A stretch of DNA of 64,000 nucleotides from an uncultured Clostridia bacterium (GCA_934615235.1 CAKTTL010000002.1:6184-70183), one strand, 5' to 3'. Counted from the stretch's first letter, positions 35,148-59,807 are shown. A program made the numbers and translations. Notes: a model not told the origin generated them from the sequence alone.

Positions 35148-35164
35148 AGCAATGGCGCATGCTA

Positions 35165-38126: not shown

Positions 38127-38405
38127 GCCGCCTATGGCGGTTGCAACTGCGTCGTCGATAGCTGAAGTGATGTACGTTCTGCATTCGGACATTGCGCCAA
38201 AGGGCGCGCATATTGAGAACGAACTGTTAAAACTTCCAATGCATAGAATGAAAGATTATCGTATGAAATATTCGCTGTTTTCCAACCTCATTCAGGGCAG
38301 AGATCATGTTCGTGAAGTGAGACGGACGCGTAGTTCAAACAATAAGCGCATTGATTTTTTCGTTCAAATGAAGCAGCTTACTGTTGCTGTTCATGGTGCG
38401 ATCTT

Positions 38406-39653
38406 TTATTTTTCTCGAAAATGTTTAGGGGAAAACCCGGTCATCCTTTTTACGAAACGATTGAAAGTTGATCGGCATTCAAAGCCTCCAATTTCGCTGA
38501 TCTCATCTAAGGTTAACTGTGGATTTTTCATTAGCTCTATCAGCGACTTAATTTTGCAATCGGCAATATAGTTGGACAAGTTCATCCCCATATGCTTGAG
38601 AAAAAGACGCGACAGGTATGAAGCGTTGTAGCCAGCCACTTTGGCTAAGGTTTCTAACCGCACATCGCCAAAGAGGTTTTTCTGAATGTATTCAGTTACA
38701 GGCTTTAGAATATATTTCGAGTATGAAGGCGGTGAATCAGATTGCAGTTCATGAACATAGGAAGATTCTACATCTGAGACATTGTAGTGCTTCATTCGTT
38801 CAAGCTGTGCATAAAAGCCTCCATCTTCGCGAATGGATGGTGAAAACAGACAAACTGTCGTATAGCCAGACATTTCAGAGAATTGCTCCACAACGCTGCT
38901 CAACACATCCTGGATGGAATGTATTTCAAATTCCTTTTTCAACTGTAAAATCCCCCAGAAACGTTCCTCTGCCATTGTAAAGCATCGAAAAGCTGAAACG
39001 CTTTTCATATGCCTATCACACAGTTTCTTTAATTGCTTTGATGTTTGCTCACTATAAGTATATTGAGGCGACTGAAGATAAAACAGACAAACCGGATCAT
39101 CAACTTCGGCACACTGCAGGGCTCTCAAGGCATCTCGATAGCTGCGTGGATCTCTGGCATAGCTGCCACGAATCAGATTTCTCATGGTTTCTTGTAGCAG
39201 ACATTCAACCTGCTCGTCTGCTGAATTCTGCGCAGTCAGTAAGTGTTCAATATCCTGCATTTGAGAATCCAGCATGTGCAATGCGCGTAAAATCTCACTT
39301 ATGAGCATTTCATCACTTTCTGATTTTAGCACGTAGGCGAATACGTCTTCCTGAATCGCAGAACGGGCATAGCTAAAATCGGCGTGAGCTGTTAAAATGA
39401 TTGTTTTGCACTCTTGCCAACGCTGACGGACGATGTGGGTGAGCTGCAGACCATCCAATTTTGGCATTTGAATGTCAGTAATTAAAATATCAATTCGCCT
39501 TCTGCGCATTACAGCCAACGCGGCAATAACAGAATTTGCTTGAAAAATTTCCAGTTCATAGGGAATGTGTTCCTCCAGAAGTAGTGGAATGGTTTGAAGA
39601 ACATGGGGCTCGTCATCGACAATCAGAACCTGATATATCTGTTTTTCACTCAT
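38406..39653 (-). CDS. Two-component response regulator, REC + AraC-type HTH (YesN-like), cassette 1
   Basis: VLIVDDEPHVL..DILITDIQMPKLDGL receiver plus a C-terminal AraC HTH (..GYNASYLSRLFLKHMG..). Confidence 0.88.
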   Translation of the reverse strand: MSEKQIYQVLIVDDEPHVLQTIPLLLEEHIPYELEIFQANSVIAALAVMRRRRIDILITDIQMPKLDGLQLTHIVRQRWQECKTIILTAHADFSYARSAIQEDVFAYVLKSESDEMLISEILRALHMLDSQMQDIEHLLTAQNSADEQVECLLQETMRNLIRGSYARDPRSYRDALRALQCAEVDDPVCLFYLQSPQYTYSEQTSKQLKKLCDRHMKSVSAFRCFTMAEERFWGILQLKKEFEIHSIQDVLSSVVEQFSEMSGYTTVCLFSPSIREDGGFYAQLERMKHYNVSDVESSYVHELQSDSPPSYSKYILKPVTEYIQKNLFGDVRLETLAKVAGYNASYLSRLFLKHMGMNLSNYIADCKIKSLIELMKNPQLTLDEISEIGGFECRSTFNRFVKRMTGFSPKHFREK

Positions 39654-41343
39654 TAGTTATTTCTCCTCGATTAGATAGTCTAAGTTCTACGCAAAGTCCG
39701 CCAAGAACGCTTCTGGAAAGTGTCATGCCGGCTGATTGATCATAAAACAGCACCAATCTGCGTCGGATGTTATATAAGGCCGTTATGTTGTCGGTTGTAC
39801 GTTCAGTTGTTGATTTCTGCATTTCCCAGAGTTTTTCATCATCCAACGAAGTTCCGTTATCTTCAATGCGAATAACAAGCTGTTCACCTTCCGTTTCGAA
39901 AGTGGTTCTGATCAATAACCTCTCCTGATCGTGCATTGCATAAGAAATGGCGTTTTCATAGATGGGCTGTATGATCAAACGTGGTACAATAATCCGACTC
40001 CACTTTTCGGGAATAGGTGCTTGCTCTTGAACCAGCTTTGCGCCAAAGCGCATGGCCTGAATGGCCAGATAGTTTTTTGCATGCTCGTATTCATCGTTCA
40101 GTGGAACCTCCATTTCTCCGGTGGAGGACAGGTATTTAAAATAATCTCCTAGATGCTGACTAAGAATCATGGCATGCTCTGTGTCCTCGTAGGCGATCAT
40201 GTGCCGCAGCAGATATAAAGTATTAAAGAGAAAATGCGGATGAATTTGTGCTTGTAGATGCTTCAATTCCAGTTTGCTGGTATATATTTCATACTTATAA
40301 TTACTGTTGATGAGCCTTTCGATTTGTTGCATTGTAAAATTCAAACCGTCAAACAGCTGGTTAAATTCCCTAGCAACGGGTTTAGAGGTGATTCGCTGAG
40401 TCATATCGCCTTTTTGCATTGCTTCCATGGCCTTCACCAGCTTTTTAACAGGGAAAACGATGGTTTTCCGAAGGCTTCTAAAACATAAAATAATAAGCGG
40501 AACGCATAACACTAGAAAAAGCATAAGCGTTAGTAGCTGCTTTCGCTCTTCTGTGAACACTTCATTGGCGATTAGGTATTTATTTAAATCGCTGTTCAGA
40601 ATATCCGAATGAACGGAGACTACTTCGTAGGCCTTACGTTGGACATTTGCCAAATTGCATTGGCGCTGATTGGATAGCAAAACCATTCCGTTACCATAAT
40701 CCATCATAGTAGGTTGATCTGAACACGGTTCCACGGATAACATAGCTGTCAATTCCGCGATATCCAGGTGCGCAATCATCATAATTTGCGGGGCATGCCC
40801 GGGAAAAAGCAGTATTAGAAAAAAATCATTTTTTTCCTGATCATAATTCAAGACTTCGGGAATGGCCTGATTCAAAATGATGTCGTAGTCGCTTGCCGAT
40901 ACGCTGCGTAAACCTGCCTTGGAGGAAATGCTTTTTTCGTGCGTAACATAATAGACCTCCAGGCTTTTTACCATGGAGTTTTGAATACAAAAATTCTGTA
41001 AAGTCGTACTGATGCGTCGTACTGTCAAATAGTATTCACGACGGCTGTAATGGTCGTAATAGCCATAAAAGCTGATTAAATCCGCATTAATGTTGGCGTT
41101 GCTCAATAACTGGCGCAGGTTGAATTGAATGGATGCGATTTCCTTTTCTAGCATTTTTTTTGTAAATTGCATTCCTTGTTCCACAAGTGCGACAGTATTA
41201 CTGTGCAGCTTATTGATAGAAGTGTGAATCGTCATTCCTCCGAAAAAAAGGATTGGAAGAACCACAGCAAAAAATAAAGCGATAATCCTGGACGATACGC
41301 TGGGACGCGTTTGGGTCACTGCAAACACCACACATTTTTTCAT
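39646..41343 (-). CDS. Sensor histidine kinase (YesM-like: 2 TM + extracytoplasmic domain, HAMP, His_kinase/HATPase), cassette 1
   Basis: 565 aa with the LQAQIHPHFLFNTL phosphoacceptor box typical of the LytS/YehU-YesM class. Overlaps the RR gene by 8 nt. Confidence 0.88.
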   Translation of the reverse strand: MKKCVVFAVTQTRPSVSSRIIALFFAVVLPILFFGGMTIHTSINKLHSNTVALVEQGMQFTKKMLEKEIASIQFNLRQLLSNANINADLISFYGYYDHYSRREYYLTVRRISTTLQNFCIQNSMVKSLEVYYVTHEKSISSKAGLRSVSASDYDIILNQAIPEVLNYDQEKNDFFLILLFPGHAPQIMMIAHLDIAELTAMLSVEPCSDQPTMMDYGNGMVLLSNQRQCNLANVQRKAYEVVSVHSDILNSDLNKYLIANEVFTEERKQLLTLMLFLVLCVPLIILCFRSLRKTIVFPVKKLVKAMEAMQKGDMTQRITSKPVAREFNQLFDGLNFTMQQIERLINSNYKYEIYTSKLELKHLQAQIHPHFLFNTLYLLRHMIAYEDTEHAMILSQHLGDYFKYLSSTGEMEVPLNDEYEHAKNYLAIQAMRFGAKLVQEQAPIPEKWSRIIVPRLIIQPIYENAISYAMHDQERLLIRTTFETEGEQLVIRIEDNGTSLDDEKLWEMQKSTTERTTDNITALYNIRRRLVLFYDQSAGMTLSRSVLGGLCVELRLSNRGEITNE

Positions 41344-41604
41344 TTTCTACAGTGTATCATAAGCATTTTGAGAACGCAAACCCAATCCTAAAAGAAGAAT
41401 AAAGCAATAAATGTATATGGGCAAAGGGTTTTCCAGGGCATGGTAAACTTTTGCATTAAAAATGTAAAAATCTGCAAAAAACATGGCGGAAGGTGCCGAG
41501 TATATCAAAAAACGAAAAAAATTCTTGATTTTGCATCATTGAATAGTGACGATAAGTTATTATAATACATAGTACAAGGTAACCAAATAAAGGAGGTCTG
41601 TCTT

Positions 41605-43215
41605 ATGAAGAAACTACTCTCAATTCTTCTAACTGTGGTCATGGTTTTCTCTGTTTCCTCTGCTTTTGCGTATGAACGCGGCGAATACGAAGCAACACCC
41701 GTGCCAGTTACCATCACCAGTGCCAATATGCTGGATGTAACTCGTCAGTTTGACGAGAACAACCCTGACAAACGTAACATTAGCGAAAACCGTTGGGTTA
41801 CGGCCTATAAAGACTATCTGAATGTTGAGCTGCAGTACAAGTGGGTAGCGACTGACAGTGAGACCTCGGCTGCCAAGTGGAGCACGGCCATTGCCAGCAA
41901 TGATCTTCCTGATTTCGCTATGGTTGGGAATAATGAATATCAACTTTTGCTGGAATCTGGGCTGATTGCGGACTGCTCAGAAGCATGGGATAAGTACATT
42001 TGTCCCGAATATAAAGCGTTGCTGGACGATTCATCTATTGCACAGGTAACCTTTAATGGCAAAATGATGGGCTTCCCTTATCCGACGAAAGGATACATGG
42101 GTGCAAAAATGCTCTTCGTCCGTCAGGACTGGCTGGATCAGCTCGGCCTCGAATATCCACATACGCTGGAGGAGGTTATTGCCGTAGCCAAAGCTTTTAA
42201 GGAAGCAAAGCTTGGCGGTGACGATACCATGGCGCTTATGGTGTCGAATGAGGACGATGGGCATATTTCAGGCCTGATGAACGTGATGGGGGCATATTAC
42301 GATTATTGGGTTGAGGATGAAAACGGAAAAGTTGTCTGGAGCAATACTCAGCCTGCCATGCGCGAAGCGCTGCTGAAATTGCAGAACATGTATTCTGAAG
42401 GCCTAATCAATGAAGACTTTGCCGTTGTTACCACTGATTTGGCTAAGGAATATATTGCAGGCGGCAAAGCCGGTATTTTCTATGCCACAAGTTGGGATAC
42501 TACTATGTCTATTCAGGCACTGTACGATAATGATGAAAATGCTCATATTGTAAGCGACTATATTCATGGCATAAACGGCGAGGATGTGAAATTCCAGACC
42601 AATACCCCGATTGTTAGCAAAGTTTTCGTGAACGCCAAGTGCAGCGATGAACAGATCAAGATGATCGCTCAGATGATCAACCTCACTTTTGATCTGACGA
42701 ACTCTTCTGATTTGGAAACTTATCAGAATTATTCTATCGACTCGGATGGTCATATGTGGTTTAAGTATGTCCCCTTTGGTGACAAACCTGTTAGCACCAT
42801 CAACGATATGGCCGCTGCTTATGAGATACAGCTGGCTTATGAAGCAGGTGCTAAGACTTCGGATGACTATGAATGGGAATACACCGATGCAAAGGGCTGG
42901 TATGATTCCTATCTGGACGCGCTCAATGGCGGAAGTACCCCTGACTGGTACTATTTGACCTTTGGCAAGGGCGGCGTTTACACCCAGCTATATGATGCAT
43001 TCTTGCGTGGACTGCATCTTGCAAATGCCTATGTTGGCCTGCCAACTGCTACTCAGCAGATGATGGGAGATGTGCTTGACAGCCAGCTGAAGACGGCTAT
43101 GTTTGAAGTGATCATGGGTGCGGATATCTCTGCCTATGACGATGCCGTAAAAGTTTGGCTTTCCAGTGGTGGCCAGATGATTCTGGATGAGATCAACGAA
43201 GCGTTGGGAAAGTAA
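41605..43215 (+). CDS. Extracellular solute-binding protein, large LplA-like family-1 SBP, cassette 1
   Basis: 536 aa with an N-terminal signal peptide ending SSAFA (no lipobox Cys). Alignable end-to-end with the 536-aa SBP at 56258-57868. Confidence 0.85.
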   Translation: MKKLLSILLTVVMVFSVSSAFAYERGEYEATPVPVTITSANMLDVTRQFDENNPDKRNISENRWVTAYKDYLNVELQYKWVATDSETSAAKWSTAIASNDLPDFAMVGNNEYQLLLESGLIADCSEAWDKYICPEYKALLDDSSIAQVTFNGKMMGFPYPTKGYMGAKMLFVRQDWLDQLGLEYPHTLEEVIAVAKAFKEAKLGGDDTMALMVSNEDDGHISGLMNVMGAYYDYWVEDENGKVVWSNTQPAMREALLKLQNMYSEGLINEDFAVVTTDLAKEYIAGGKAGIFYATSWDTTMSIQALYDNDENAHIVSDYIHGINGEDVKFQTNTPIVSKVFVNAKCSDEQIKMIAQMINLTFDLTNSSDLETYQNYSIDSDGHMWFKYVPFGDKPVSTINDMAAAYEIQLAYEAGAKTSDDYEWEYTDAKGWYDSYLDALNGGSTPDWYYLTFGKGGVYTQLYDAFLRGLHLANAYVGLPTATQQMMGDVLDSQLKTAMFEVIMGADISAYDDAVKVWLSSGGQMILDEINEALGK

Positions 43216-43227
43216 GTATTGGTTTAA

Positions 43228-43266
43228 AGTGGCAGGCACGAATACTGCCTGCCACTTTGTTTTTTT
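43228..43266 (+). terminator. Stem-loop with T-run after SBP gene 1 (intra-operon attenuator/partial terminator)
   Basis: AGTGGCAGGCA...TGCCTGCCACT followed by TTGTTTTTTT. Confidence 0.6.
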
Positions 43267-43275
43267 GAAGAAAGG

Positions 43276-44196
43276 ATGGCGACCATGAAAGCACGATCCA
43301 CTACAAGGGGACAATGGAAACGAAATTTACCCCTACATTTGCTTTTGCTGATGCCGGTTATATTAACCTTTATTTATAAATACATCCCTATGGTAGGCGT
43401 TATCATGGCATTTGAGAACTATAAGCCTGCACAGGGTTTGCTCAAATCTAAGTGGGTCGGTTTGCGCAATTTCCAGTTTCTATTTATGATGCCTGGTTTT
43501 ACAACGGCCGTTTGGAATACGTTTATTATTGCTCTTGGAAAAATTATCTTGGGTATTGTGGTGCCTGTTACCTTTTCACTGATGCTCAACGACCTTAAAA
43601 GTCCTCTTCTCAAGCGGAGCATTCAGACTGTGATCTATATGCCACATTTCATTTCATGGGTTTTGATGGCAGGCATCGTTAACCGGTTACTGGCTCCCAA
43701 CGGGCTGGTGAATCAGTTCATAGTTGCATTGGGTGGAAAATCTAAAGTTTTTTTGGCGGATAAATCAATTTTTCGTCCTCTTCTGTGGATTACTGAAATC
43801 TGGAAAGAATTCGGTTATGGTACAATTGTCTATTTGGCAGCAATCTGCGCAATTGATACAACCTTGTATGAAGCTGCTGTTGTGGATGGTGCCGGCGCAT
43901 GGCAGCAAATGATTCATGTTACACTGCCAGGTCTGATTCCTACAATCATCCTGATGACGGTTTTGTCGTTGGGTAATATTCTGAATGCAGGCTTTGATCA
44001 AGTTTTTAACTTGTATTCTGAAATCGTATACAAGACAGGCGATATTATTGATACTTTTGTTTATCGTCTTGCTTTTAATAATGCACAGTTCAGTATATCT
44101 ACAGCGGCAGGTTTGTTTAAGTCCTGCATTTCGTGCGTAATGATCGTAGTGTCTTATATTATTTCTTACCGTGTCAGCGGATATCGCGTGTTTTAA
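43276..44196 (+). CDS. ABC transporter permease (LplB/CUT1-type), cassette 1
   Basis: 306-aa 6-TM protein with the EAA-loop region (..YEAAVVDGAGAWQQMIHVTLP..). Confidence 0.88.
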   Translation: MATMKARSTTRGQWKRNLPLHLLLLMPVILTFIYKYIPMVGVIMAFENYKPAQGLLKSKWVGLRNFQFLFMMPGFTTAVWNTFIIALGKIILGIVVPVTFSLMLNDLKSPLLKRSIQTVIYMPHFISWVLMAGIVNRLLAPNGLVNQFIVALGGKSKVFLADKSIFRPLLWITEIWKEFGYGTIVYLAAICAIDTTLYEAAVVDGAGAWQQMIHVTLPGLIPTIILMTVLSLGNILNAGFDQVFNLYSEIVYKTGDIIDTFVYRLAFNNAQFSISTAAGLFKSCISCVMIVVSYIISYRVSGYRVF

Positions 44197-44205
44197 GGAG
44201 AATGC

Positions 44206-45093
44206 ATGATGATACGCTATCAAAATAGTCTCTCCAGAAAATCTTTTGTAATTCTAAATCATTTTATGACGATCCTCATCTGCCTCATCTGCCTCTTGCC
44301 ACTTATCTATGTGCTGGCTATCTCGTTAAGCAGCAAAGAATATATTATAGCAGGCAAAGTAACCCTGTTTCCTAAAGGATTTACTTTGTCTAATTATCAA
44401 TATGTGATGAAGGATGCGCAGTTTTATACGTCATTTGGTGTTTCTGTATATCGAACGTTGCTTGCGGTTGTTGTGCAGATGGTAATGACTATTTGCGCAG
44501 CCTATCCACTATCTATCAGCAAGTACAAGTTCAGACAGCGCCCTCTTTATGCGTGGTATTTCATTATTACTATCATTTTCAATGGTGGCATGATTCCCAC
44601 CTATCTGGCTGTGAGTAATACAGGATTGCTTAATACAATTTGGGCTTTGATCATCCCCGAGGCAGTCCCTGTATTCAACATCATTCTATTGTCGAACTAT
44701 ATGAAGACTTTGCCCGATGCGCTAAGCGAATCCGCGTCACTGGATGGTGCAGGACATATTCGTATCATGCTGCAAATCATTTTGCCTCTCTGCATTCCTT
44801 CCCTGGCTACTCTTACCTTGTTTGTGATGGTAGGCGCATGGAATGAATGGTTTGCCGGTATGTTATATATCAACAATCCCAATCTTTTCCCGTTGCAAAC
44901 TTATTTGCGTGCTTTGATTGTGGAAGTTGATATAAATCAAATGAGTGATCTGAATTCTATGGCAAATCTTGTTGCAAGTGTTGGCGCAGACACCGCTAAA
45001 ATTTTCCTTGCAATGATTCCGATTCTGTGCGTATATCCGTTTTTGCAAAAGTATTTTGTGAACGGGTTGGTCGCAGGAAGCGTAAAAGAGTAA
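44206..45093 (+). CDS. ABC transporter permease (LplC/CUT1-type), cassette 1
   Basis: 295 aa with ..SASLDGAGHIRIMLQIILPL.. as the EAA loop. Confidence 0.88.
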   Translation: MMIRYQNSLSRKSFVILNHFMTILICLICLLPLIYVLAISLSSKEYIIAGKVTLFPKGFTLSNYQYVMKDAQFYTSFGVSVYRTLLAVVVQMVMTICAAYPLSISKYKFRQRPLYAWYFIITIIFNGGMIPTYLAVSNTGLLNTIWALIIPEAVPVFNIILLSNYMKTLPDALSESASLDGAGHIRIMLQIILPLCIPSLATLTLFVMVGAWNEWFAGMLYINNPNLFPLQTYLRALIVEVDINQMSDLNSMANLVASVGADTAKIFLAMIPILCVYPFLQKYFVNGLVAGSVKE

Positions 45094-45102
45094 AAAGGAG
45101 AA

Positions 45103-45840
45103 ATGATTATGGAACTGCGTTGCAAAAAAATTATTATTTCAGGCGGCGGAAGTGGTATCGGTCTTGGTATTGCTCGCAAATGCGTATCGCTTGGGGCGCA
45201 AGTGGTGCTTATGGGACGAACTGAGTCTAAATTACGCTGTGCCACAGATGAACTGGGCGAACGAGCCCATTATCATGTGCTGGATGTAAGTGATATTTCT
45301 GCCTTTTCGGCGGCAATCGATGCGGCGTGTACAATTATGGGAGGGGTGGACGGTTTGGTAAACAGTGCTGGCGCATGCGCCTATACCCATGAATGGGGAG
45401 CAGGAATGTTCGAGCAAACAGAGGATGAATGGGATAAAGTGATGGATACCAATGTAAAGGCCCCTTTTTTCCTTTCGCGTGCAGTACTAAGCTATATGAT
45501 GACCCATAAGGTAGCGGGAAACATTCTCAATGTTGTTTCAGAAGCAGCCTTTGTTCCAGCATCTGCCAGCTATGGCGCCAGCAAGCACGCGCTCCGCGCG
45601 CTGACCGCGGGACTTTCACAAGCCGCTATATGTTATGGTGTTGTGGTCAACGGCATTGCGCCCGGTACAACTGCAACGGATTTTGTTGATGTTTCCACAG
45701 AGCTTGCCATGCATCGCCAGGCGAATGGTCGTTTGGGAACAGTAGAAGAGATGGCAGAACTTGCTGCATTTCTTATGAGCCGTGAGGGTGAAAACATTAT
45801 TGGTCAAACGATTCTATCCTGTGGCGGAAGTACATTTTAA
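45103..45840 (+). CDS. Classical short-chain dehydrogenase/reductase (SDR)
   Basis: SGGGSGIGLG cofactor motif, NSAG, and catalytic S...YGASK (YxxxK). There is a 9-nt gap from the permease and a 12-nt gap to GRE1. Confidence 0.88.
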   Translation: MIMELRCKKIIISGGGSGIGLGIARKCVSLGAQVVLMGRTESKLRCATDELGERAHYHVLDVSDISAFSAAIDAACTIMGGVDGLVNSAGACAYTHEWGAGMFEQTEDEWDKVMDTNVKAPFFLSRAVLSYMMTHKVAGNILNVVSEAAFVPASASYGASKHALRALTAGLSQAAICYGVVVNGIAPGTTATDFVDVSTELAMHRQANGRLGTVEEMAELAAFLMSREGENIIGQTILSCGGSTF

Positions 45841-45852
45841 AGCGGAGGTTAT

Positions 45853-48853: not shown

Positions 48854-48866
48854 TGCTAAAACAAAG

Positions 48867-48894
48867 CGCCATGTTTTCAGAGACATGGCGTTTT
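48867..48894 (+). terminator. Intrinsic terminator ending the cassette-1 operon
   Basis: CGCCATGT-loop-ACATGGCG followed by TTTT. Confidence 0.7.
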
Positions 48895-49074
48895 GTAATT
48901 TGTTGCTCTGATAATTGGCGAAAATAAGGAAAGCCATATTCATGCTTGCTTGAAAGTGATAAAAAACAACACGGTAAAACGTAGCAAGTAATGTTGTGAG
49001 ATCAACAAACTACTTTTGACGAAAAATCGACTCGTTATCCTTTGAGGTGGATTCAACTTTGCTTTGTTTTGATA

Positions 49075-49869: not shown

Positions 49870-50032
49870 TCGTTTCCCCTCCAGCGAATAACAGTATAGC
49901 ATATTTTGAAATAGTATGATAGAAAATTTCCGTATAATGCTATTTTTCTTTATCTTGCGATTTACACTGTGACGCGCCGCTCATACAATTAAAACACCGG
50001 ATACACATGAGCTGATCGAAGGAGGAGAGCGT

Positions 50033-52282: not shown

Positions 52283-52290
52283 GGAGATAT

Positions 52291-53130
52291 ATGCAGATGA
52301 AAGGCATGCTCTTCGATATTCAGCGCGCTTCCACTGTGGATGGTCCGGGATTTCGTACTACGGTTTTCTTTAAGGGATGTAACCTCCGCTGTGCATGGTG
52401 CCATAATCCGGAAAGTCAGTCTGCTGTGCCGCAGCTGCTGTTTTATCAGGAGCGCTGCACGCATTGTGGACTTTGCGAACGGGTTTGCCCTTACGGGCTT
52501 AGAAAGTGTGATTTGTGCGGAAAATGTGCGGATGCATGTCCGCAGGAGGCGCGCAGCCTGTGTGGGATGGAATATACAGTAGAGGATGCAATGAAGAAGA
52601 TTCTGCCGGATCGTCTGTTCTATCAGACGTCCGGCGGAGGGGCCACTTTCTCGGGCGGCGAGTGTATGCTGCAATTGGGTTTTCTAAAAGAATTGCTTGA
52701 TTCTTGCAAAAAAGAAAAAATTCACACTGCAGTGGATACGGCAGGCGCTGTGCCGTGGAGGTCTTTCGAAGAAATTCTGCCGTATACGGATATGTTTCTC
52801 TATGATGTAAAGAGCATGAATTCTCAGCGTCATAAGGAATATACGGGTGTTGGCAACGAACAGATATTAGAAAACCTGTCGCGCTTGCTGCAGATGCAAA
52901 AACGTGTCTGGGTGCGTGTGCCGATTATTCCGGGGGTAAACGATACGCTGGAGGAGATGCGCGCGCTGCGCGCTTTCCTCCTTGCAAATGGCTATCCGAA
53001 AAAAGTGGAGCTTTTGCCATATCATCGCATGGGCGAAATGAAATGGAAAGCGCTCGGTCAAAAGGCGACGCTTTTCAATCCGCCTTCTGCTGAACAGGTG
53101 GATACGCTGCGCAATGCAGTAAAACCGTAA
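52291..53130 (+). CDS. Glycyl-radical-enzyme activating protein (radical SAM) with two auxiliary cluster motifs (AE2)
   Basis: CNLRCAWCHNPE, then CTHCGLCERVCP and CDLCGKCADACP. Confidence 0.9.
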   Translation: MQMKGMLFDIQRASTVDGPGFRTTVFFKGCNLRCAWCHNPESQSAVPQLLFYQERCTHCGLCERVCPYGLRKCDLCGKCADACPQEARSLCGMEYTVEDAMKKILPDRLFYQTSGGGATFSGGECMLQLGFLKELLDSCKKEKIHTAVDTAGAVPWRSFEEILPYTDMFLYDVKSMNSQRHKEYTGVGNEQILENLSRLLQMQKRVWVRVPIIPGVNDTLEEMRALRAFLLANGYPKKVELLPYHRMGEMKWKALGQKATLFNPPSAEQVDTLRNAVKP

Positions 53131-53133
53131 CAA

Positions 53134-54354
53134 CTAAAGCACGTCAACGGGGGGCGAAACGTAACTGGCCTTGCCTTCGTGAATTTGCTGCGGCGTGTGG
53201 CCGGTCATGCGTTTCACGTAGCGGTTAAAGTATGAGCGATTGTTGAAGCCCATTGCACAGGCTACATCGCTGCAGGACATGCTTTGAAGCAATCGGCAGA
53301 TCTGCTGTGTTTTGCGGCAGGCGATATAGTAGCTGATTTGTAATCCGGTTCGCTTTTGAAACAGCCGGGAGAGATGTCCGGTACTGTAACCGCTGATTAG
53401 GGAAAGCGTGCTGATTGATAAATCCATGTTCAGGTGCTGGTCGATATAACGTAGAACCGTGTCGACAGGATCCGCAAACGTCGTTTCTTCCTTGCCGGTG
53501 AGTATGCGAATAAAGCCCTCGCCGGTTTCTTCTTCAATTTTGCCGCGCATCCGCGCGGAAAGTGTACCGACGCTTGTCTGAGCGGGAGAGAAATAAGCGA
53601 CGATCAGTGGCGTACGCGAAAGAAGATCGCTGTTTTCCTGCGCCAGTTCCAATGCACCCAGCATTGAGGCTGCGGAGGACAGAGGCAAAGCGAGACACCA
53701 GAATATGTTGCCGGCAACACAGGAGCCGAGCACATGGGCATGCGGACTCAGCTGTGCCTGCACAGAGAGAGCGAGCTTTTCATTTTCTGCAGGATCTGTT
53801 CCTGCACGTCCAGCAATGAGCCAGATTTCCGCTGAGGATTCAGACACGCCCATCAGCGCCAACAGCTTTTTCTCGCGTTGCGGATCCTTGTCCAGCGAAA
53901 TCAACGTCAGAAGAAGCTCGGCGTTGATTTCATGCTGCATTATTCGGTCGGGCAAATCCAACCTGTTTTTCTGTGCGTCGATGAGGTGGACAGCCTTTTC
54001 AACAGCCTCTAAAAGCTTCTCATCATTTTCTGTTTTCAGGACGAAACCGGCTACGTTCAAATCGAGCGCGCGATAAGCGTATTCGAAACTGTCGTATGCC
54101 GTCAGCATAATCACCTGACATTGCGGCCAGAGCACGCGAATGCGCGTCACAAGCTCGAGACCGTCCATGCCGCCCATGCGGATGTCAGAAATCAGCAGGT
54201 CGATACGATCGTTTTGCGCAAGCGCCAGGGCTTCCTCGCCGGAAAAAGCGCGGCAAACATCCATATTCCAACGGGATTGGCATTGAAGAAGCGCAGCAAC
54301 GGAATTTGCGATAAACGTTTCATCATCTACGACAAGGGCGCGATATAAATGCAT
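53134..54354 (-). CDS. Two-component response regulator, REC + AraC-type HTH (YesN-like), cassette 2
   Basis: ALVVDDETFI..DLLISDIRMGGMDGL receiver plus a C-terminal AraC HTH. Confidence 0.88.
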   Translation of the reverse strand: MHLYRALVVDDETFIANSVAALLQCQSRWNMDVCRAFSGEEALALAQNDRIDLLISDIRMGGMDGLELVTRIRVLWPQCQVIMLTAYDSFEYAYRALDLNVAGFVLKTENDEKLLEAVEKAVHLIDAQKNRLDLPDRIMQHEINAELLLTLISLDKDPQREKKLLALMGVSESSAEIWLIAGRAGTDPAENEKLALSVQAQLSPHAHVLGSCVAGNIFWCLALPLSSAASMLGALELAQENSDLLSRTPLIVAYFSPAQTSVGTLSARMRGKIEEETGEGFIRILTGKEETTFADPVDTVLRYIDQHLNMDLSISTLSLISGYSTGHLSRLFQKRTGLQISYYIACRKTQQICRLLQSMSCSDVACAMGFNNRSYFNRYVKRMTGHTPQQIHEGKASYVSPPVDVL

Positions 54355-54365
54355 GTTCTTTCCTC

Positions 54366-56039
54366 CTAACGCGGCAGAAGCATCAGTACGCAGAGCCCGC
54401 CGAGGTCGCTTGGAAGCAGTTTCAGGCCGAAGGGACTTCCGTATTTCAAACGGATTCGCCGGTGAATATTTTTCAGCCCGGTGGTTTCTTCGTCAGGGGT
54501 TACGTCCAGATTCGTTGCCAGCACATCTGCGGGAGACTGTACGGCGCTGTTTTCAAACTTGAGCAGAATTGTATCTTCATTGAGCTGCGTGCTGAAACGG
54601 ATGCGCATTCCATCCGACATCCCCTGAAAACCGTGCGTAAACGCATTTTCGACGATCGGTTGAAAAATCAGCCTTGGAACGCGCATGCACAGCGCTTCTT
54701 GCGGCCAGGGCGCGATATCGAGCTCCAATCGCTCTTCCCAGCGCAGCTTTTGCAGGTTCAGATAATTGAGCATGTGCTCATATTCCGAAGAAACGGGAAC
54801 AGTTTCCTGGCCGGAGCGGGTGATATACCGGAAGTAACCTCCCAGGTATTGACACACTTCCGCAGCGGCGTCCGTTTCTTCATCCTGTACAAGCCGCTCC
54901 AGCATGTAAAAGGTGTTGTATAGAAAATGCGGATTGATCTGCGATTGCAGCTGCTTGAATTCAATTTGCTGAGCGCGGTTTTGCTGTTCAACAAGACGCT
55001 GAGTGGTTTCATCCAGGTGCTCGGTCAATTCCTGGAAACCGCGAATCAGCCGGCTCATCTCTTCAGGCCCCTGCTGTGCAAGCTCGGGGCGCACATTGCC
55101 GCTGCGAACCTGTTCGAATGCATCCAGCAATGCCTTTACCGGGCGCTGAACCTGACCGCGCGCGAGCGCGGCATATCCAATAAAGAATGGAATGCAGAGG
55201 AGAAAATACAGAATCAGCAGACGGGAAAAATTCCGTACATCCGTCAGCAAGATGCTGTTGGGGACAAAGTTGACAAAGCCTAATCCGTTCGGGTTGCCGG
55301 CGTAAAAGACATGATACTTTATGTTTTCCAACGTCGCCCGATTATCGCTGTTTTCCCGAAGCCACTGCGCGCCCGGCTGCCAGCCGCCGATGCATTGCCC
55401 TCGATATGTCAGCACGCATTCGCCTGCGAAAACTCTTTGACTGATGGACGCGCAAAGCGCGTTGAGGGAAAGCGTCGCTTCACAATATGCCAGAGGCTCC
55501 TTTTCGCCGGGGAGAATGTTTGGATAGCCGAGTATCAGCGTCAGTTTGCCGTCGCGCATTCCGAGCAGGTTGCCGTGCCTGGAGCTCCAGCTGGCGCGCA
55601 GATCTTCCCAAAAGGCTTCGCTGAGCTTATCGGTATACGTGTTTTCAGAAATTAAGACGTTCAGAGAAGGGTGGAACAGGCAAATCTGGGCGACTGAGTC
55701 GCAACCCAGCCGTGCCCATTGCAGTTCTTTCATAATTGCGCGTGCGGAAATCCAATAGGAGTAATCATTAGGGGTATGCGTGCCCAACAGGGCGGTTGCT
55801 TTCGTATTGTCGCTGTATAACAGGGAGTGCAGCGTCTGCAGCGTAAGGTCGTATTGCTCGGAAAGGTAAACCGCTGCGCTTTGCGCAGTCTGTTCGGCTT
55901 TGGAAAGCACGGCGCGATTCGTGTGCGCAGCCCCGCGCAGCAGAATGAAGCCGCCGAAAGCCTGTACCGGGACCATTACAGCAAAGAAGATGATCAACAT
56001 CTGTCGGTAGAGGCTGCCCTGACGGCGAAAGCGTTTCAT
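54366..56039 (-). CDS. Sensor histidine kinase (YesM-like), cassette 2
   Basis: 557 aa with 2 TM + sensor domain + HAMP, the LQSQINPHFLYNTF box, and HATPase. Confidence 0.88.
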   Translation of the reverse strand: MKRFRRQGSLYRQMLIIFFAVMVPVQAFGGFILLRGAAHTNRAVLSKAEQTAQSAAVYLSEQYDLTLQTLHSLLYSDNTKATALLGTHTPNDYSYWISARAIMKELQWARLGCDSVAQICLFHPSLNVLISENTYTDKLSEAFWEDLRASWSSRHGNLLGMRDGKLTLILGYPNILPGEKEPLAYCEATLSLNALCASISQRVFAGECVLTYRGQCIGGWQPGAQWLRENSDNRATLENIKYHVFYAGNPNGLGFVNFVPNSILLTDVRNFSRLLILYFLLCIPFFIGYAALARGQVQRPVKALLDAFEQVRSGNVRPELAQQGPEEMSRLIRGFQELTEHLDETTQRLVEQQNRAQQIEFKQLQSQINPHFLYNTFYMLERLVQDEETDAAAEVCQYLGGYFRYITRSGQETVPVSSEYEHMLNYLNLQKLRWEERLELDIAPWPQEALCMRVPRLIFQPIVENAFTHGFQGMSDGMRIRFSTQLNEDTILLKFENSAVQSPADVLATNLDVTPDEETTGLKNIHRRIRLKYGSPFGLKLLPSDLGGLCVLMLLPR

Positions 56040-56139
56040 TGCGACAATCCCTTCGTTTCATCGTATTGCAGGATTTTTACATGAGTTAGTATAACAGACT
56101 AAAAAAGCAGCCGCAAGGCGCGGAGATGGCAAAACGCCA

Positions 56140-56208
56140 AAATGCTTGAAAAGTGAAACGCAAATGCTGGAAAAGTGCAATGGCGAATCCTGTAAACTTT
56201 GATACAAT
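56140..56208 (+). promoter_or_regulatory. Activator-type promoter of the cassette-2 ABC operon: two 16-nt direct repeats plus an extended -10
   Basis: AAATGCTTGAAAAGTG (56140-56155) and AAATGCTGGAAAAGTG (56162-56177), 22 nt apart start to start. TGATACAAT with the -10 at 56203-56208 and no good -35. Confidence 0.5.
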
Positions 56209-56257
56209 GGCATAAAGGCCGCAAGCGGCTAAACAAAAACAAGGGAGGAACCTTACC

Positions 56258-57868
56258 ATGAAGAAACTTTTGGCTTTGGTATTGTCCCTGCTGATGGTGC
56301 TCACCGCGGCGAGCGCCATGGCGAAAACGGACATTCCCGACCTGTCCGGGCTGGAGGGCATTGCCCGCTTTGAGGAGCCGGTGCAGATTTCTTTTGCCCG
56401 TGTAATGGATTCAGCAGCTCAGTTCGATGATACAGATCAGGAGAAGAAATCCTATACCGAGAACCGCTGGATTAATACGTTCAAGGACGTGTTAAACGTT
56501 GAAGTGACATTTGACTGGGTTACTTCGCCTGATGATGATACCGCCAAATGGGGCGCGGCGATTGCCAGCGGCAACCTGCCGGACGCCGGTATGGTCAGCG
56601 ACGAAGTGTATAAGCAGCTGGTGGAAGCCGGTCTGGTCTACGACTGTACGGAGCTGTATGCGAATGAAATTTGCGAAAAGTATAAAAGCTTCTGTAATGA
56701 AGATCTGGTTGCAAACATGACTTTTGACGGCAAGCTGTACGGCCTGCCGATTCCCGGTAACTACTATATCGGCAATGCGCAGCTGTTCGTCCGCGGGGAT
56801 TGGCTCAAGCAGCTCAACCTTGAAGTGCCGACTACGATCGATGAAGCGATTGCGGTTGCACGCGCTTTCAAGGAAGCCAAGCTTGGCGGCGAGGATACGA
56901 TCGGCATGATGTTTGCCGATGGCTCCGGTGTGAACGACGGTCACCTGAAAGGATTCATGAATGGGTTTAACGCCTATCGCGATATGTGGGTCGATGTGGA
57001 CGGTAAGCTGGCGTTCAGCAACACGCTGCCTGAAATGCGCGAAGCGCTGCTGAAGCTGCAGGAAATGTATGCGGAGGGCCTGATTAATAAGGACTTCTCC
57101 GTTACCAACGGCACCGTCGCGCAGGAATATGTCGCCAGCGGCAAGTGCGGCATTTTCTACAGCACCGATTATGCCACGACCATGTCCATGCAGGCGCTGC
57201 ATGATCTGAATCCGGAAGCGGAAATTATTTGTGTCGGCGTCCCCGGCCTGACGGCGGATGCGGAGACGAAAGTTCAGACGTTTGCCGTCCTTGCTAGAAA
57301 ATTGTTTATCAATAAGGACTGCAAGCATCCTGAGGCGGTTGCACGCATGTTGAACTTGCATGTTGGAGCTTCTACGGGCAACGCGGAAATGGCTTCGGCT
57401 CTAGAAGTTGATGTGGATGATTCCTATCTGTGGTATAAACTGCTGCCCTGGAATGGTATACACATTCAGCCGGTAACCAATGACATCTGGGTTGCCGACG
57501 ACGTGCGCGTCTGGCAGGAAACCGGCGTTGAAAATTATCGCGGCGCGAACAGCCAGTCGATTATCGAAGCCTGCAAAGATCCGGCCTCCCCGTGGTGGTA
57601 TCTTGCCACATTCGGAAAGGATGCATCCTATACGTACGACTATGACATGTACATGGCCGGCCGGCAGTTGCCCAACGCGTTCAGCACCGTTCCGACTGAA
57701 ACCATGGCCATGCTCGGCGACGTTGTGAACGACGCGCTGAATACCGCGATGCTCGAAGTTATTATGGGCGCGGATATTTCTACGTACGATAAGGCTGTGG
57801 AGAACTGGTTCACCAGCGGCGGCCAGCAGATCACCGATGAAGTGAACGAGTGGTACGCTTCCAAGTAA
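56258..57868 (+). CDS. Extracellular solute-binding protein, large LplA-like family-1 SBP, cassette 2
   Basis: 536 aa with a signal peptide ending ASAMA (no lipobox Cys). Shares blocks with SBP1 (AKW..AIAS..LPD, REALLKLQ.MY.EGLIN, EVIMGADIS.YD.AV..W..SGGQ). Confidence 0.85.
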   Translation: MKKLLALVLSLLMVLTAASAMAKTDIPDLSGLEGIARFEEPVQISFARVMDSAAQFDDTDQEKKSYTENRWINTFKDVLNVEVTFDWVTSPDDDTAKWGAAIASGNLPDAGMVSDEVYKQLVEAGLVYDCTELYANEICEKYKSFCNEDLVANMTFDGKLYGLPIPGNYYIGNAQLFVRGDWLKQLNLEVPTTIDEAIAVARAFKEAKLGGEDTIGMMFADGSGVNDGHLKGFMNGFNAYRDMWVDVDGKLAFSNTLPEMREALLKLQEMYAEGLINKDFSVTNGTVAQEYVASGKCGIFYSTDYATTMSMQALHDLNPEAEIICVGVPGLTADAETKVQTFAVLARKLFINKDCKHPEAVARMLNLHVGASTGNAEMASALEVDVDDSYLWYKLLPWNGIHIQPVTNDIWVADDVRVWQETGVENYRGANSQSIIEACKDPASPWWYLATFGKDASYTYDYDMYMAGRQLPNAFSTVPTETMAMLGDVVNDALNTAMLEVIMGADISTYDKAVENWFTSGGQQITDEVNEWYASK

Positions 57869-57883
57869 ACACTTTCCCAATTC

Positions 57884-57931
57884 GCGCCCCGCATGCCCGC
57901 CGATGCGCAGCAGGCGGGGCGCACGTTTTTA
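57884..57931 (+). terminator. Stem-loop with T-run after SBP gene 2 (intra-operon attenuator/partial terminator)
   Basis: GCGCCCCGC...GCGGGGCGC followed by ACGTTTTT. Confidence 0.55.
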
Positions 57932-57954
57932 TTCCGCAAGCAAGGAGAAAACGC

Positions 57955-58878
57955 ATGCAAAAAACAAATGCCGCAAAAAGAAGAGCGATCGCGCGCTCAA
58001 ACCAAAACTGGCAGCTTCATGTGATGCTTATTCTGCCGCTTCTGGCGTTGCTGGTTTATAATTACCTGCCGATGGCAGGCATTGTAATGGCGTTTCAGAA
58101 TTATAAGCCTGCGCTGGGTTTTGCAGGCTCAAAATGGGTAGGGCTTAAAAATTTCCAGCTGCTGTATAACCTGCAGGGTTTTCGCTATGCGGTTCGCAAC
58201 AGCTTTGTGATTGCCTTGGGCAAAATTGTGCTCAACCTGATCGTGCCGGTAACGTTTGCGCTGATGTTGAATGAAATGCGCAATGCGCATGTAAAAAAGG
58301 TCGTGCAGACGGTCGTTTATATGCCGCATTTTATCTCCTGGGTATTGCTTGCCAGTATTGTTATCCGTTTGCTTTCCGTAAACGGATTGGTGAATAAAGG
58401 AATTGTGGCGCTCGGCGGCAGCGCGCAGACGTTCCTTGCGAGCAAAAAAGCTTTTCAGCCCATTATTCTGATAACCGACGTCTGGAAGGAGTTTGGATAC
58501 GGAACCATCATCTATCTTGCCGCGATGGCAGGGGTGGATGCGAGCCTGTACGAAGCGGCGGCTATTGACGGCGCAGGCTATTGGAAGCGAATGATTCATG
58601 TGACGCTGCCCGCTATCGCGCCGACAATCGTGTTGATGGGAACCATGGCGCTTGGGCGCGTGCTGGACGCGGGCTTTGATCAGATTTTCAATTTGTATTC
58701 TCCCGCCGTATACGAGACGGCAGATATTATAGATACGTTTGTTTATCGCATGGCCTTTAACAATATGCAGTACAGCGTTTCCACCGCCGCAGGACTTTTC
58801 AAGAATGTAATTTCCTGTGTTCTTATCCTTGTGTCTTACCGGCTGGCTTATAAGTTTACCGGGTATCGTACGTTCTGA
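57955..58878 (+). CDS. ABC transporter permease (LplB/CUT1-type), cassette 2
   Basis: Likely start is the ATG at 57955 (MQKTNAAKRR..) after AAGGAG. Strongly similar to 43276-44196. Confidence 0.88.
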   Translation: MQKTNAAKRRAIARSNQNWQLHVMLILPLLALLVYNYLPMAGIVMAFQNYKPALGFAGSKWVGLKNFQLLYNLQGFRYAVRNSFVIALGKIVLNLIVPVTFALMLNEMRNAHVKKVVQTVVYMPHFISWVLLASIVIRLLSVNGLVNKGIVALGGSAQTFLASKKAFQPIILITDVWKEFGYGTIIYLAAMAGVDASLYEAAAIDGAGYWKRMIHVTLPAIAPTIVLMGTMALGRVLDAGFDQIFNLYSPAVYETADIIDTFVYRMAFNNMQYSVSTAAGLFKNVISCVLILVSYRLAYKFTGYRTF

Positions 58879-58898
58879 AAGAGGGGGGGCAGAAAGAA

Positions 58899-59780
58899 AT
58901 GGAATTGGGCGCTTCGAGAAGCCGCAAGGCGTTTGTGGTTTTCAATTATATTTTTTGCGTGCTCGTCGGTTTTCTGTGCCTCGCACCGGTAATTCATGTG
59001 CTAGCGCTGTCGCTCAGCGCGAAGGAACAGGTGATCGCAGGCAATGTGACGCTTTGGCCTAAAGGCCTTACGCTGGATAATTATCGCTATGTGGCAAGGG
59101 ATTATCAGTTTTACAGCGCGTTCTTTGTCTCAATCAAGCGGACGGCGCTGGCGCTTGTGGTGGTAATGGCAATGACGATTCTTGCGGCATATCCGCTATC
59201 CATGACGCGCCAGCAGTTCAAGCCGCGTCGTGTATACATCTGGCTGTTTGTGATTCCGATGATTTTCAGCGGCGGCTTAATTCCGACGTATCTCGCCGTG
59301 ACGAAAACCGGCCTGATCAACAGCATTTGGGCGCTGATTCTGCCGGTCGCCGTTCCGGTTTATAACGTGATTTTGCTGCAAAACTTCATGAAGGCGCTTC
59401 CGGATGCGATTACGGAAGCTGCGCATATTGACGGTGCGGATCATTTCACAACGTTGGGCAAGGTGATTCTGCCGCTGTGCCTGCCGTCGCTGGCAACGTT
59501 GTCGTTGTTTGTGGCCGTCGGCCATTGGAATGCGTGGTACGATGGGATGCTCTATATCAACGATAACCTGAAGTTCCCGCTGCAGACGTACCTGCGCACC
59601 GTAGTAGTGCAAGTCAATCTTGATCAGATTAACGATTTAAACACGCTCAGCAACCGCGTTGCGACGGTGGCGGCGGACTCTGCAAAGGTCTTCCTTGCGC
59701 TGGTTCCCATGTTGATCGTCTATCCGTTTGCACAGAAGTATTTTATTCACGGCATTGTGCAGGGAAGCGTGAAGGAATAG
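58899..59780 (+). CDS. ABC transporter permease (LplC/CUT1-type), cassette 2
   Basis: 293 aa, similar to 44206-45093 (..AAHIDGADHFTTLGKVILPL..). Confidence 0.88.
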   Translation: MELGASRSRKAFVVFNYIFCVLVGFLCLAPVIHVLALSLSAKEQVIAGNVTLWPKGLTLDNYRYVARDYQFYSAFFVSIKRTALALVVVMAMTILAAYPLSMTRQQFKPRRVYIWLFVIPMIFSGGLIPTYLAVTKTGLINSIWALILPVAVPVYNVILLQNFMKALPDAITEAAHIDGADHFTTLGKVILPLCLPSLATLSLFVAVGHWNAWYDGMLYINDNLKFPLQTYLRTVVVQVNLDQINDLNTLSNRVATVAADSAKVFLALVPMLIVYPFAQKYFIHGIVQGSVKE

Positions 59781-59807
59781 TCGCCTGTCGCTGGTACAAA
59801 ATGAATT

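Follow-up and report, generated by a model that had tools for sequence, protein, structure and literature searches.

Glycyl radical enzymes (GREs) are behind the formation of trimethylamine, hydrogen sulfide, p-cresol and skatole in the gut. In canonical LplABC/YesMN loci, an importer and a two-component system (TCS) are encoded together with intracellular glycoside hydrolases (GHs), the genes of which follow those of the permeases. Here we describe a locus of an uncultured Clostridia bacterium (CAKTTL010000002.1), in which these two themes meet. Within a stretch of 64,000 nucleotides, termed the window, the section at 38406-59780 holds two cassettes, each of which combines an LplABC-type importer and a YesMN-type TCS with a GRE and its radical S-adenosylmethionine (SAM) activase (AE). 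The genes of the importer and TCS are unexceptional for the LplABC/YesMN kind, and the new point is a radical enzyme in the GH slot. On balance, we lean slightly towards the reading that the section encodes the inducible import and radical catabolism of polyhydroxylated compounds by two separately regulated modules, in gut Clostridia related to Candidatus Aphodomonas.

A review of June 2026 lists all characterised GREs, recognises seven classes and regards whole clades as still unvalidated (PMC13450708). Every eliminase or isomerase retains a CXE motif, the Glu of which, two residues after the thiyl Cys, hydrogen-bonds or deprotonates a hydroxyl of the substrate; PAD, a non-eliminase, has Gln484 at position Cys+2. 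The superfamily fingerprint is RVxG[FWY]x6-8[FL]x4Qx2[IV]x2R, and for glycerol dehydratase (GD) the residues given a role are only C433, E435 and H164. Among characterised GREs, only YbiW and PflD act on carbohydrates, several others use amino-acid derivatives, e.g., hydroxyproline (Hyp) or N-methyl-Hyp, and neither transporter-linked nor AraC-linked GREs are mentioned (all from PMC13450708). A search of the open-access literature on GREs with ABC transporters, sugars, anhydroglucitol, glycosides or sequence similarity network clusters yielded nothing on the families described below. As to the importers, MsmX of Bacillus subtilis is the shared ATPase of AraNPQ, GanPQ, YtcQP-YteP and YesOPQ (PMC5730181).

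All 16 genes listed in a preliminary description of the locus are present at the coordinates given there, as borne out by open reading frame (ORF) calls, Pfam and NCBIfam; the corrections are minor and concern start codons only. The two cassettes comprise the following features:

38406-39653, minus strand: RR1, YesN-type response regulator with REC and AraC-type helix-turn-helix (HTH) domains (Pfam)
39646-41343, minus strand: HK1, YesM-type histidine kinase with HAMP and PF06580 domains (Pfam, hydropathy)
41605-43215, plus strand: SBP1, divergent LplA/AlgQ-type solute-binding protein (SBP), 536 aa
43225-43259, plus strand: hairpin between SBP1 and permease A1, terminator-like or attenuating
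43276-44196, plus strand: permease A1, LplB-type (BPD_transp_1)
44206-45093, plus strand: permease B1, LplC-type (BPD_transp_1)
45103-45840, plus strand: classical short-chain dehydrogenase/reductase (SDR), an oxidoreductase (adh_short, E = 4e-44)
45853-47949, plus strand: GRE1, 698 aa, with PFL-like and Gly_radical domains
47933-48853, plus strand: AE1, GRE activase, radical SAM protein (TIGR02494)
48861-48896, both strands: bidirectional terminator-like hairpin with a 16-bp stem, closing the cassette-1 operon
49075-49869, minus strand: AraC-family regulator, divergent from GRE2 (Pfam), with an alternative upstream start at 49902
50033-52282, plus strand: GRE2, 749 aa (Pfam)
52291-53130, plus strand: AE2, GRE activase (TIGR02494, cluster motifs)
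53134-54354, minus strand: RR2, YesN-type response regulator (Pfam)
54366-56039, minus strand: HK2, YesM-type histidine kinase (Pfam, transmembrane helices)
56258-57868, plus strand: SBP2, paralog of SBP1, 536 aa
about 57884-57922, plus strand: hairpin 3' of SBP2, GC-rich stem and U-tract
57955-58878, plus strand: permease A2 (BPD_transp_1), revised start, 307 aa
58899-59780, plus strand: permease B2 (BPD_transp_1)

Both GREs are members of the superfamily (IPR004184), as they possess a PFL-like and a glycyl radical domain: PF02901 and PF01228 match GRE1 with E = 2e-98 and 7e-23, and GRE2 with E = 6e-85 and 1e-15, respectively. Both also have a thiyl Cys and an adjacent radical-SAM activase. 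AE1 and AE2 reach 335 and 338 bits against TIGR02494 (cut-off 174); AE1 features a CX3CX2C motif and two ferredoxin-type cluster motifs, and AE2 likewise contains all three cluster motifs. As each has a Gly loop, a thiyl Cys and a cognate activase, GRE1 and GRE2 look catalytically intact. The glycyl and thiyl motifs, which might have been misassigned, align to known catalytic residues, and neither enzyme looks dead. Membership of any characterised GRE clade is ruled out by phmmer searches of the PDB, NCBIfam cut-offs and Foldseek: the identity to solved GREs is 18-30%, and both proteins score 3-5-fold under every NCBIfam equivalog cut-off (HypD, CutC, HpsG, HpfG, IAD, HPAD, PFL, PflD). Together with the review, these searches uphold the earlier statement that the enzymes are not assignable to any characterised GRE pathway. 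Homologs are plentiful, stem nearly all from uncultured anaerobes and are named “hypothetical” or “PFL family”.

GRE1 carries the catalytic set of the eliminases. Its residues H114, C358, E360 and G674 align to H164, C433, E435 and the radical Gly of GD (1R8W), and are invariant among 37 members of the GRE1 family, all of which (37/37) contain the CXE motif as C358-V-E360. The fingerprint of GRE1 (RIGGF-NARFVA-C-EPEL-Q-QE-I-IE-R) shows two deviations (V to I, L to C), and the family consensus fits. In phmmer searches, GD is the best PDB match, followed by the diol dehydratases; the best NCBIfam equivalog score is 268 bits versus cut-offs of 1000-1150, and the subfamily model TIGR01774 yields 321 versus 678. 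GRE1 is predicted to harbour eliminase-type machinery in a pocket unlike that of GD. Gene contexts of relatives were established by tblastn and homology-guided ORF selection, and the loci compared bear L-numbers. The SDR gene lies immediately 5' of the GRE gene in all eight GRE1 relatives at ≥43% identity, where the AE is the 3' partner, and therefore SDR-GRE1-AE forms a conserved trio. The SDR contains the motifs SGGGSGIG, NSAG and YGASK, and a segment 3' of the glycine-rich motif (VVLMGRTESK) suggests NADP(H) as the probable cofactor. The position of the activase gene is not fixed, given that in the closest relative of cassette 1, L008 (~1650-2500, minus strand), the GRE has no activase 3' of it, and the opposite strand encodes an AE2-like activase (53%) upstream of the RR.

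GRE2 departs from this scheme. Alignments place C400 and G726 at the catalytic positions of IseG, CutC and GD, and in a profile-profile alignment His135 corresponds to His114 of GRE1. The Cys loop is non-canonical (G399-C400-W401-G402), with Gly402 replacing the essential Glu of IseG, CutC and GD. Among 36 members of the GRE2 family, the residue at Cys+2 is Gly in 25, Asp in nine and Gln and Ala in one each, and never Glu (0); the Trp of the GCW loop is invariant. A GRE2-specific insertion of nine residues carries the likewise invariant D302, H303, E304 and E306. The fingerprint (RVCGF-SARFTS-L-SPEW-Q-QE-V-LS-R) is an exact match, the best NCBIfam equivalog score is 217 bits versus cut-offs of 1000-1150, and TIGR01774 yields 257 versus 678. 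An AlphaFold2 (AF2) model of GRE2 (pLDDT 89, pTM 0.91) resembles all PFL2-type GREs equally in Foldseek searches (TM-score about 0.8, 18-21% identity, none favoured). The model is of low confidence only at 298-304 and 609-635, two highly conserved segments that correspond to the D302/H303/E304 insertion and a TPDGR loop. Because the CXE Glu is missing, GRE2 probably catalyses a different radical reaction or employs a relocated acid/base, for which E304, E306 and H303 are candidates. Both GREs are radical-competent by motif, yet their mechanisms appear to differ (CXE plus His in GRE1, no CXE Glu in GRE2).

The partners of GRE2 differ as well: a divergent AraC gene is found in 10 of 11 and an AE gene in 9 of 11 well-flanked GRE2 loci, and some include an aldo-keto reductase (AKR). 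GRE2 relatives are frequently members of arrays of AraC-GRE-AE modules. In six metagenome contigs (L096, L098, L100, L103, L105, L129), such arrays comprise at least three modules, with mutual GRE identities of 25-57%, between which genes of the beta-lactamase-fold, M20, GDSL and AKR types are scattered, and this module type has evidently been much expanded in some uncultured Clostridia. Nine metagenome contigs (L152-L158, L163, L164) share a further layout, in which a 152-aa ORF (e.g., L156, ~9995-10450) represents only the C-terminal glycyl radical domain of a GRE2-family enzyme. This ORF shares 67% identity with GRE2 residues 599-748, retains the Gly motif, reads TPNER instead of TPDGR and is followed 3' by genes for an AKR and an activase, and the body of a GRE is absent 5'. 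Such an ORF is a spare radical domain for the GRE2 family, comparable to GrcA/YfiD, or else the conserved remnant of a deletion.

The importers next to these enzymes are of a familiar type. No Pfam SBP model matches SBP1 or SBP2 even at E <= 1, which could mean that the genes do not code for SBPs at all. This is ruled out by the homologs, which have an SBP_bac_1 or SBP_bac_8 domain and are annotated as aldouronate SBP or LipO, by a search of the PDB with a family profile, which retrieves Smon0123, AlgQ1/2 and FusA (best E = 4e-32, to 1e-24), and by an AF2 model of SBP1 (pLDDT 93.6), the nearest structures of which are 5GX8, AlgQ2 and FusA (Foldseek). By family, SBP1 and SBP2 are predicted to be divergent oligosaccharide binders of the AlgQ/Smon0123/LplA type. 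The identity to the nearest solved structures is 14-19%, and therefore the ligand is not inferable. Both proteins start with a signal peptide devoid of a lipobox Cys (SBP1, 41605-41680, …SSAFA/YE; SBP2, 56258-56335, …ASAMA/KT), which is unusual, as Gram-positive SBPs are normally lipoproteins. A class-appropriate SBP, two BPD_transp_1 permeases and no nucleotide-binding domain in the cassettes define the importers as CUT1/LplABC-type; the missing ATPase gene is normal, because this transporter class uses MsmX-type shared ATPases. The kinases contain two transmembrane helices, HAMP and PF06580, and the regulators REC and an AraC-type HTH, as expected for YesMN-type systems. In HK1, hydropathy analysis places the two helices on either side of an extracytoplasmic domain of ~230 aa, followed by HAMP and PF06580. 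The preliminary description had classed the importers as oligosaccharide-type and the sensors as YesMN-type, and both assignments are sustained, the former by homologs, PDB profile and Foldseek, the latter by domain and transmembrane evidence.

The genes of cassette 1 are tightly spaced, with a gap of 60 nt after SBP1, further gaps of 9, 9 and 12 nt, and finally an overlap of 17 nt. Accordingly, the gap of ~60 nt with a stem-loop reported before is exact, and all others are indeed at most 12 nt or overlapping. The hairpin at 43225-43259 consists of a perfect 13-bp stem followed by T7 (-23.7 kcal/mol, z = -3.4). Its counterpart 3' of SBP2 (-37.8 kcal/mol, z = -3.0) had gone unmentioned. The likeliest start of permease A2 is the ATG at 57955, which lies 3' of this hairpin and is preceded by the ribosome-binding site AAGGAG, and an overlapping GTG at 57850 is disfavoured; in a sister strain (L175), permease A2 is likewise called as 307 aa. 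In sister strains, the AraC regulator has a called length of 264 aa. The leaders contain no riboswitch or other known RNA at E <= 0.1. In agreement with the earlier account, domain searches reveal no microcompartment shell protein or aldehyde dehydrogenase among the genes at 38406-62721 and no ABC ATPase in either cassette; the sole ABC-ATPase-like ORF in the window, at about 0.5-1.2 kb, is unrelated to the cassettes. Pfam detects no GH in cassette 1 or cassette 2. Directly 3' of cassette 2, a gene on the minus strand (60091-62721) encodes an 876-aa membrane protein with a sulfatase/LtaS-like domain, which is much longer than typical LtaS and scores 95 bits against NF053595 (cut-off 970).

Paralogy between the cassettes is real, yet uneven. 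As noted earlier, SBP1 and SBP2 are both 536 aa long and align throughout (44% identity, E = 2e-144), and the permeases (60% for A1 and A2, 60% for B1 and B2), kinases (26%) and regulators (27%) are paralogs, too. The activases share 39% identity, and the two GREs only 25%. The GC content amounts to about 43% in cassette 1 (41-49%), about 52% in cassette 2 (50-54%) and about 60% in the rest of the window. Since the cassettes differ in base composition, they did not arise by recent tandem duplication, which is ruled out by the differences in GC and GC3 (GC at third codon positions), protein identities of 25-60% and the comparison of strains.

This comparison further sheds light on the origin of cassette 1. 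The window is chromosomal, with gyrB and gyrA at 20-25 kb, and at a threshold of ≥90% identity GyrA clusters with “Candidatus Aphodomonas sp.”. In blastn alignments with two sister strains (L175/L177), the flanks at 35147-36656 (90%) and 49031-59875 (96%) are syntenic, and the interior differs. To the left of cassette 1 are genes for a DUF4143 ATPase and a truncated transposase:

36657-49030, no strand: strain-variable segment with an IS256 remnant and the entire cassette 1 (blastn versus L175/L177)
37106-38074, plus strand: truncated IS256/Mutator-family transposase (PF00872, E = 6e-89, profile positions 81-371 of 379)

In place of 36657-49030, the sister strains carry a 4.4-kb module composed of AraC and a 744-aa GRE. 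The latter is a GRE2 paralog (55% identity, GCWG loop, 39% GC) without an AE of its own. Clusters at 90% identity comprise 5 (GRE1) and 8 (SBP1) members for cassette 1, and 33 (GRE2) and 30 (SBP2) for cassette 2. Because of its low GC content, the IS256 remnant at its flank and its strain variability, cassette 1 appears to be a recent horizontal acquisition that replaced another AraC-GRE module, and the locus is a hotspot of GRE-module exchange. Rather than a sister copy of cassette 2, cassette 1 is a strain-variable, horizontally acquired replacement.

The sister loci L175-L178 harbour tandem GRE2-family paralogs of 744 and 749 aa (e.g., L175, 5675-8843), each with an AraC gene, and one activase for the two, which suggests that AE2 serves both. 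A dispersed repeat of ~170 bp occurs at 2815-2985, 17279-17446 and 34984-35149 and is 91-94% identical to L177 1116-1289; at the left boundary of the variable region, one of the copies directly adjoins the DUF4143 ATPase gene, and the repeat may be an element resembling miniature inverted-repeat transposable elements. The region 29669-38074 contains a tRNA-Leu/Gly/Gly cluster, a heavy-metal P-type ATPase, Fic, the DUF4143 ATPase and the IS256 remnant, and its GC content drifts downwards; it may mark the start of a larger island including the cassettes. Elsewhere in the window, ARAGORN predicts a tRNA-Arg(ACG) at 10479-10559, inside long ORFs on both strands (9965-12430).

Is the link between importers and GREs conserved? 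The full cassette-1 operon including the TCS recurs in L008 (GRE 79%, SBP 78% identity) and in L166/L167 (GRE 60%, SBP 53%, SDR 59%). The small SBP clade comprises 79 matches at E <= 1e-10. In L169, SBP-perm-perm genes stand beside a third type of GRE (GCNE loop, 29% identity to GRE1) in another arrangement, together with AE, SDR, AraC, M20 and PGA_cap genes, and L171 features SBP-perm-perm-SDR. Other members of the clade have different companions: a metallo-beta-lactamase (MBL)-fold hydrolase and no GRE in L168 and L172, where in the latter the hydrolase follows the permeases and two SDRs and a type I dehydroquinase lie upstream of the SBP, or a glyoxalase/VOC protein in L174. The SBP-clade operons of L166, L169, L171, L172 and L174 contain no GH, and in L168 GH36 and GH42 genes are found on the opposite strand only. 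Therefore, “oligosaccharide” describes the transporter family, and not necessarily the substrate. For GRE2, the neighbouring SBP2-type ABC operon is present in L175-L178 as in the window. In L089, GRE2 (74%) is convergent with PermB (76%), PermA (72%) and SBP (58%), and thus the adjacency survives rearrangement. An SBP2 relative with 63% identity is found in L179, and L090-L092 (GRE2 70-71% identity) possess no ABC transporter. Taken together, the importer-GRE link is not a family trait, yet it is not accidental either: it appears real for cassette 1, and for GRE2 it is apparently limited to close relatives and L089. Of the “architecture-matched coupling” proposed for the two cassettes, the cassette-1 operon stands, being kept down to 60% GRE identity, but the conserved cores are only SDR-GRE1-AE and AraC/GRE2/AE.

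According to the reading we favour, a YesM-type kinase would sense an extracellular compound, and the YesN-type regulator would switch on a CUT1/LplABC-type importer, which comprises an AlgQ/Smon0123-class SBP and two permeases and would be served by an ATPase in trans. The imported compound would be processed in the cytoplasm by the GRE, once activated by the radical-SAM activase. In GRE1, Cys358 would form the thiyl radical, Glu360 would act as base and His114 as acid. Abstraction of a hydrogen atom at a carbinol carbon would lead to expulsion of a substituent from the neighbouring carbon, and the likeliest reaction would be a dehydration or other C-O cleavage (1,2-elimination) of a polyhydroxylated, sugar-derived molecule. 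The carbonyl product might be reduced by the co-conserved SDR; alternatively, the SDR might prepare the substrate first. In module 2, the TCS would govern import, and AraC, presumably sensing the imported compound intracellularly, would govern GRE2-AE2. Gene content, motifs, family membership, the conserved cores and the variability between strains are direct observations, and from the sequence we infer the substrate class, reaction type, SDR direction and regulatory logic.

Several observations weigh against this reading. Among well-flanked relatives, no more than 1 of 6 (GRE1) and 2 of 11 (GRE2) have an ABC permease within 8 kb, and most members of both GRE families are without a nearby ABC transporter or TCS, such as the GRE1 relatives between uvrB and ftsW (L001) or beside GH31/dockerin genes (L003). 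Therefore, the GRE modules can work without this importer, and chance may have contributed to the adjacency, above all in the case of GRE2 with its own AraC regulator. In distant GRE1 loci, the SDRs share no more than about 30% identity with that of the window. The cassettes lack a downstream kinase, aldolase or aldehyde dehydrogenase, which would indicate recovery of carbon or energy. Residues H281, S282 and D447 of GD, which we take to bind glycerol, are not conserved: the first two fall in a loop deleted from GRE1, and D447 aligns to Val372. Finally, related GRE modules adjoin M20 peptidase, beta-lactamase-fold, GDSL and PGA_cap genes, and these hydrolase neighbours hint at non-carbohydrate or conjugated substrates.

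The scarcity of importers among relatives is what an explanation by mere adjacency predicts, to which we assign a minor, though appreciable, chance. Self-contained mobile SDR-GRE1-AE1 and AraC-GRE2-AE2 modules would have come to rest beside ordinary sugar importer/TCS units, the transporters would supply a conventional glycan catabolism with its genes at other sites, and the substrates of the GREs would be small molecules unrelated to it. The plasticity of the region as a swap hotspot, the separate regulator of GRE2, close relatives of GRE2 without an ABC transporter (L090-L092, 70-71%) and members of the SBP clade without a GRE (L168, L172) fit this explanation. However, it leaves unaccounted for that cassette 1 is a tight operon (9-12 nt or overlap after the hairpin) kept as a unit to 60% GRE identity, that the SBP clade joins a third GRE type in another arrangement (L169), that GRE2 and the SBP2-type operon are still adjacent in the rearranged L089 and that the SBP-clade operons contain no GH. 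The absence of GHs is also compatible with a sugar-type transporter recruited for amino-acid, peptide or ester conjugates, or for cyclitol/quinate-like acids, which we deem somewhat less likely again. Consistent with such substrates are the M20 peptidase, beta-lactamase-fold and GDSL genes near related modules, PGA_cap and M20 in L169, the type I dehydroquinase, two SDRs and MBL-fold hydrolase in L172, the glyoxalase/VOC protein in L174 and the use of Hyp or N-methyl-Hyp by some characterised GREs (PMC13450708). On the other hand, the nearest solved SBPs are all oligosaccharide binders, the KEGG-style names of the homologs are aldouronate SBP, the permeases are CUT1-like, and the hydrolase genes are for the most part components of neighbouring GRE modules, not of those of GRE1 or GRE2. 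Of the “imported carbohydrate-derived substrate” suggested before, the oligosaccharide-type transporter family is retained, but the substrate class stays conjectural, with no GH in the SBP operons.

Two further explanations concern the chemistry. It is improbable that the GREs replace GHs by acting directly on an imported glycoside or oligosaccharide-like compound, with GRE2 as a new mechanistic class. As such radical glycoside/ether lyases, the enzymes would use the thiyl to abstract a hydrogen atom from a sugar carbinol carbon (e.g., C2), the ketyl radical would expel the neighbouring substituent (anomeric C1-O or another ether/ester C-O), and the resulting keto- or anhydro-sugar would be reduced by the SDR, or by the AKR of some GRE2 loci. 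The Glu-less GCW loop and the D302/H303/E304/E306 insertion would place GRE2 outside the seven classes of the review. We consider it highly improbable that GRE1 is a divergent glycerol/1,2-propanediol dehydratase and the SDR an aldehyde reductase, the two forming a redox sink that yields 1,3-propanediol/propanol-like products. GD and the diol dehydratases are indeed the best PDB matches, the Cys/Glu/His triad is kept, and the operon includes an oxidoreductase gene. Yet the identity is about 25-30%, TIGR01774 gives 321 bits versus 678, the glycerol-binding residues are not conserved, a microcompartment, an aldehyde dehydrogenase and a 1,3-propanediol-type (iron) alcohol dehydrogenase are all absent, and an importer with a 536-aa oligosaccharide-class SBP is unlikely for glycerol or propanediol.

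The locus bears on more than one question. It defines two abundant, uncharacterised GRE families with their partner genes (SDR; AraC) in gut/rumen Clostridia and other anaerobes, of which the GRE2 family departs from the CXE rule of known eliminases and isomerases, pointing to different chemistry or a relocated base. As the GREs are linked to binding proteins and sensors, ligands offer a route towards the substrates. Should these be glycan-derived, a hydrolase-independent breakdown of carbohydrates in anaerobes would emerge. The significance is tempered by the facts that uncharacterised GRE clades are numerous, that the ABC coupling is lineage-restricted and that the substrate cannot be named from sequence. 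With one enzyme devoid of the CXE Glu and no GH in the cassettes, we regard the locus as a promising starting point for new anaerobic chemistry, not as a known pathway.

A comparison with described systems delineates this lead. GRE1 shares the fold domains, Gly, Cys, CXE Glu and His with glycerol and 1,2-propanediol dehydratases (1R8W, 5I2A, 9RCO), as well as an adjacent dedicated activase with two auxiliary clusters. In contrast, it is about 25-30% identical and about 90 residues shorter, its substrate-binding residues differ, and it is part of an ABC-importer operon with an SDR and without a microcompartment or aldehyde dehydrogenase. Loci of GRE-associated microcompartments (GRM) are set apart by their shell proteins and aldehyde dehydrogenase, neither of which is encoded at 38406-62721. 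PAD and the X-succinate synthases share with GRE2 the absence of a Glu at Cys+2, and therefore loss of this residue accompanies non-eliminase chemistry. However, these enzymes are the weakest matches of GRE2 in both sequence and structure (BSS 1e-28, HPAD 8e-22), small accessory subunits are missing, the GCW[G/D] loop fits none of the motifs in the review (CXE, two-Cys, PAD Cys-x-Gln), and GRE2 lies among AraC, reductase and importer genes, not among genes for the degradation of aromatics or hydrocarbons.

The nearest conceptual precedent for a sugar-directed GRE1 are the anhydro-sugar-phosphate isomerases YbiW and PflD of “anhydroglycolysis”, which perform C-O cleavage beside a carbinol via CXE (PMC13450708). 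GRE1 is no closer to them (E = 1e-59 to 5e-55) than to other GREs, GRE2 resembles them with a TM-score of about 0.8 and 20-21% identity and is without CXE, and kinases or aldolases are not part of the cassettes. The gene organisation is best matched by the YesMN and LplABC/YtcQP loci for aldouronate and rhamnogalacturonan in Bacillus and Paenibacillus. Common to both are a divergently encoded PF06580 kinase and REC-AraC regulator, a large SBP of the LplA/AlgQ class and two permeases without an ATPase gene. The cassettes differ by SBPs that are beyond the reach of Pfam models and devoid of a lipobox Cys, and by the GH slot, which is vacant in cassette 2 and occupied by SDR-GRE-AE in cassette 1.

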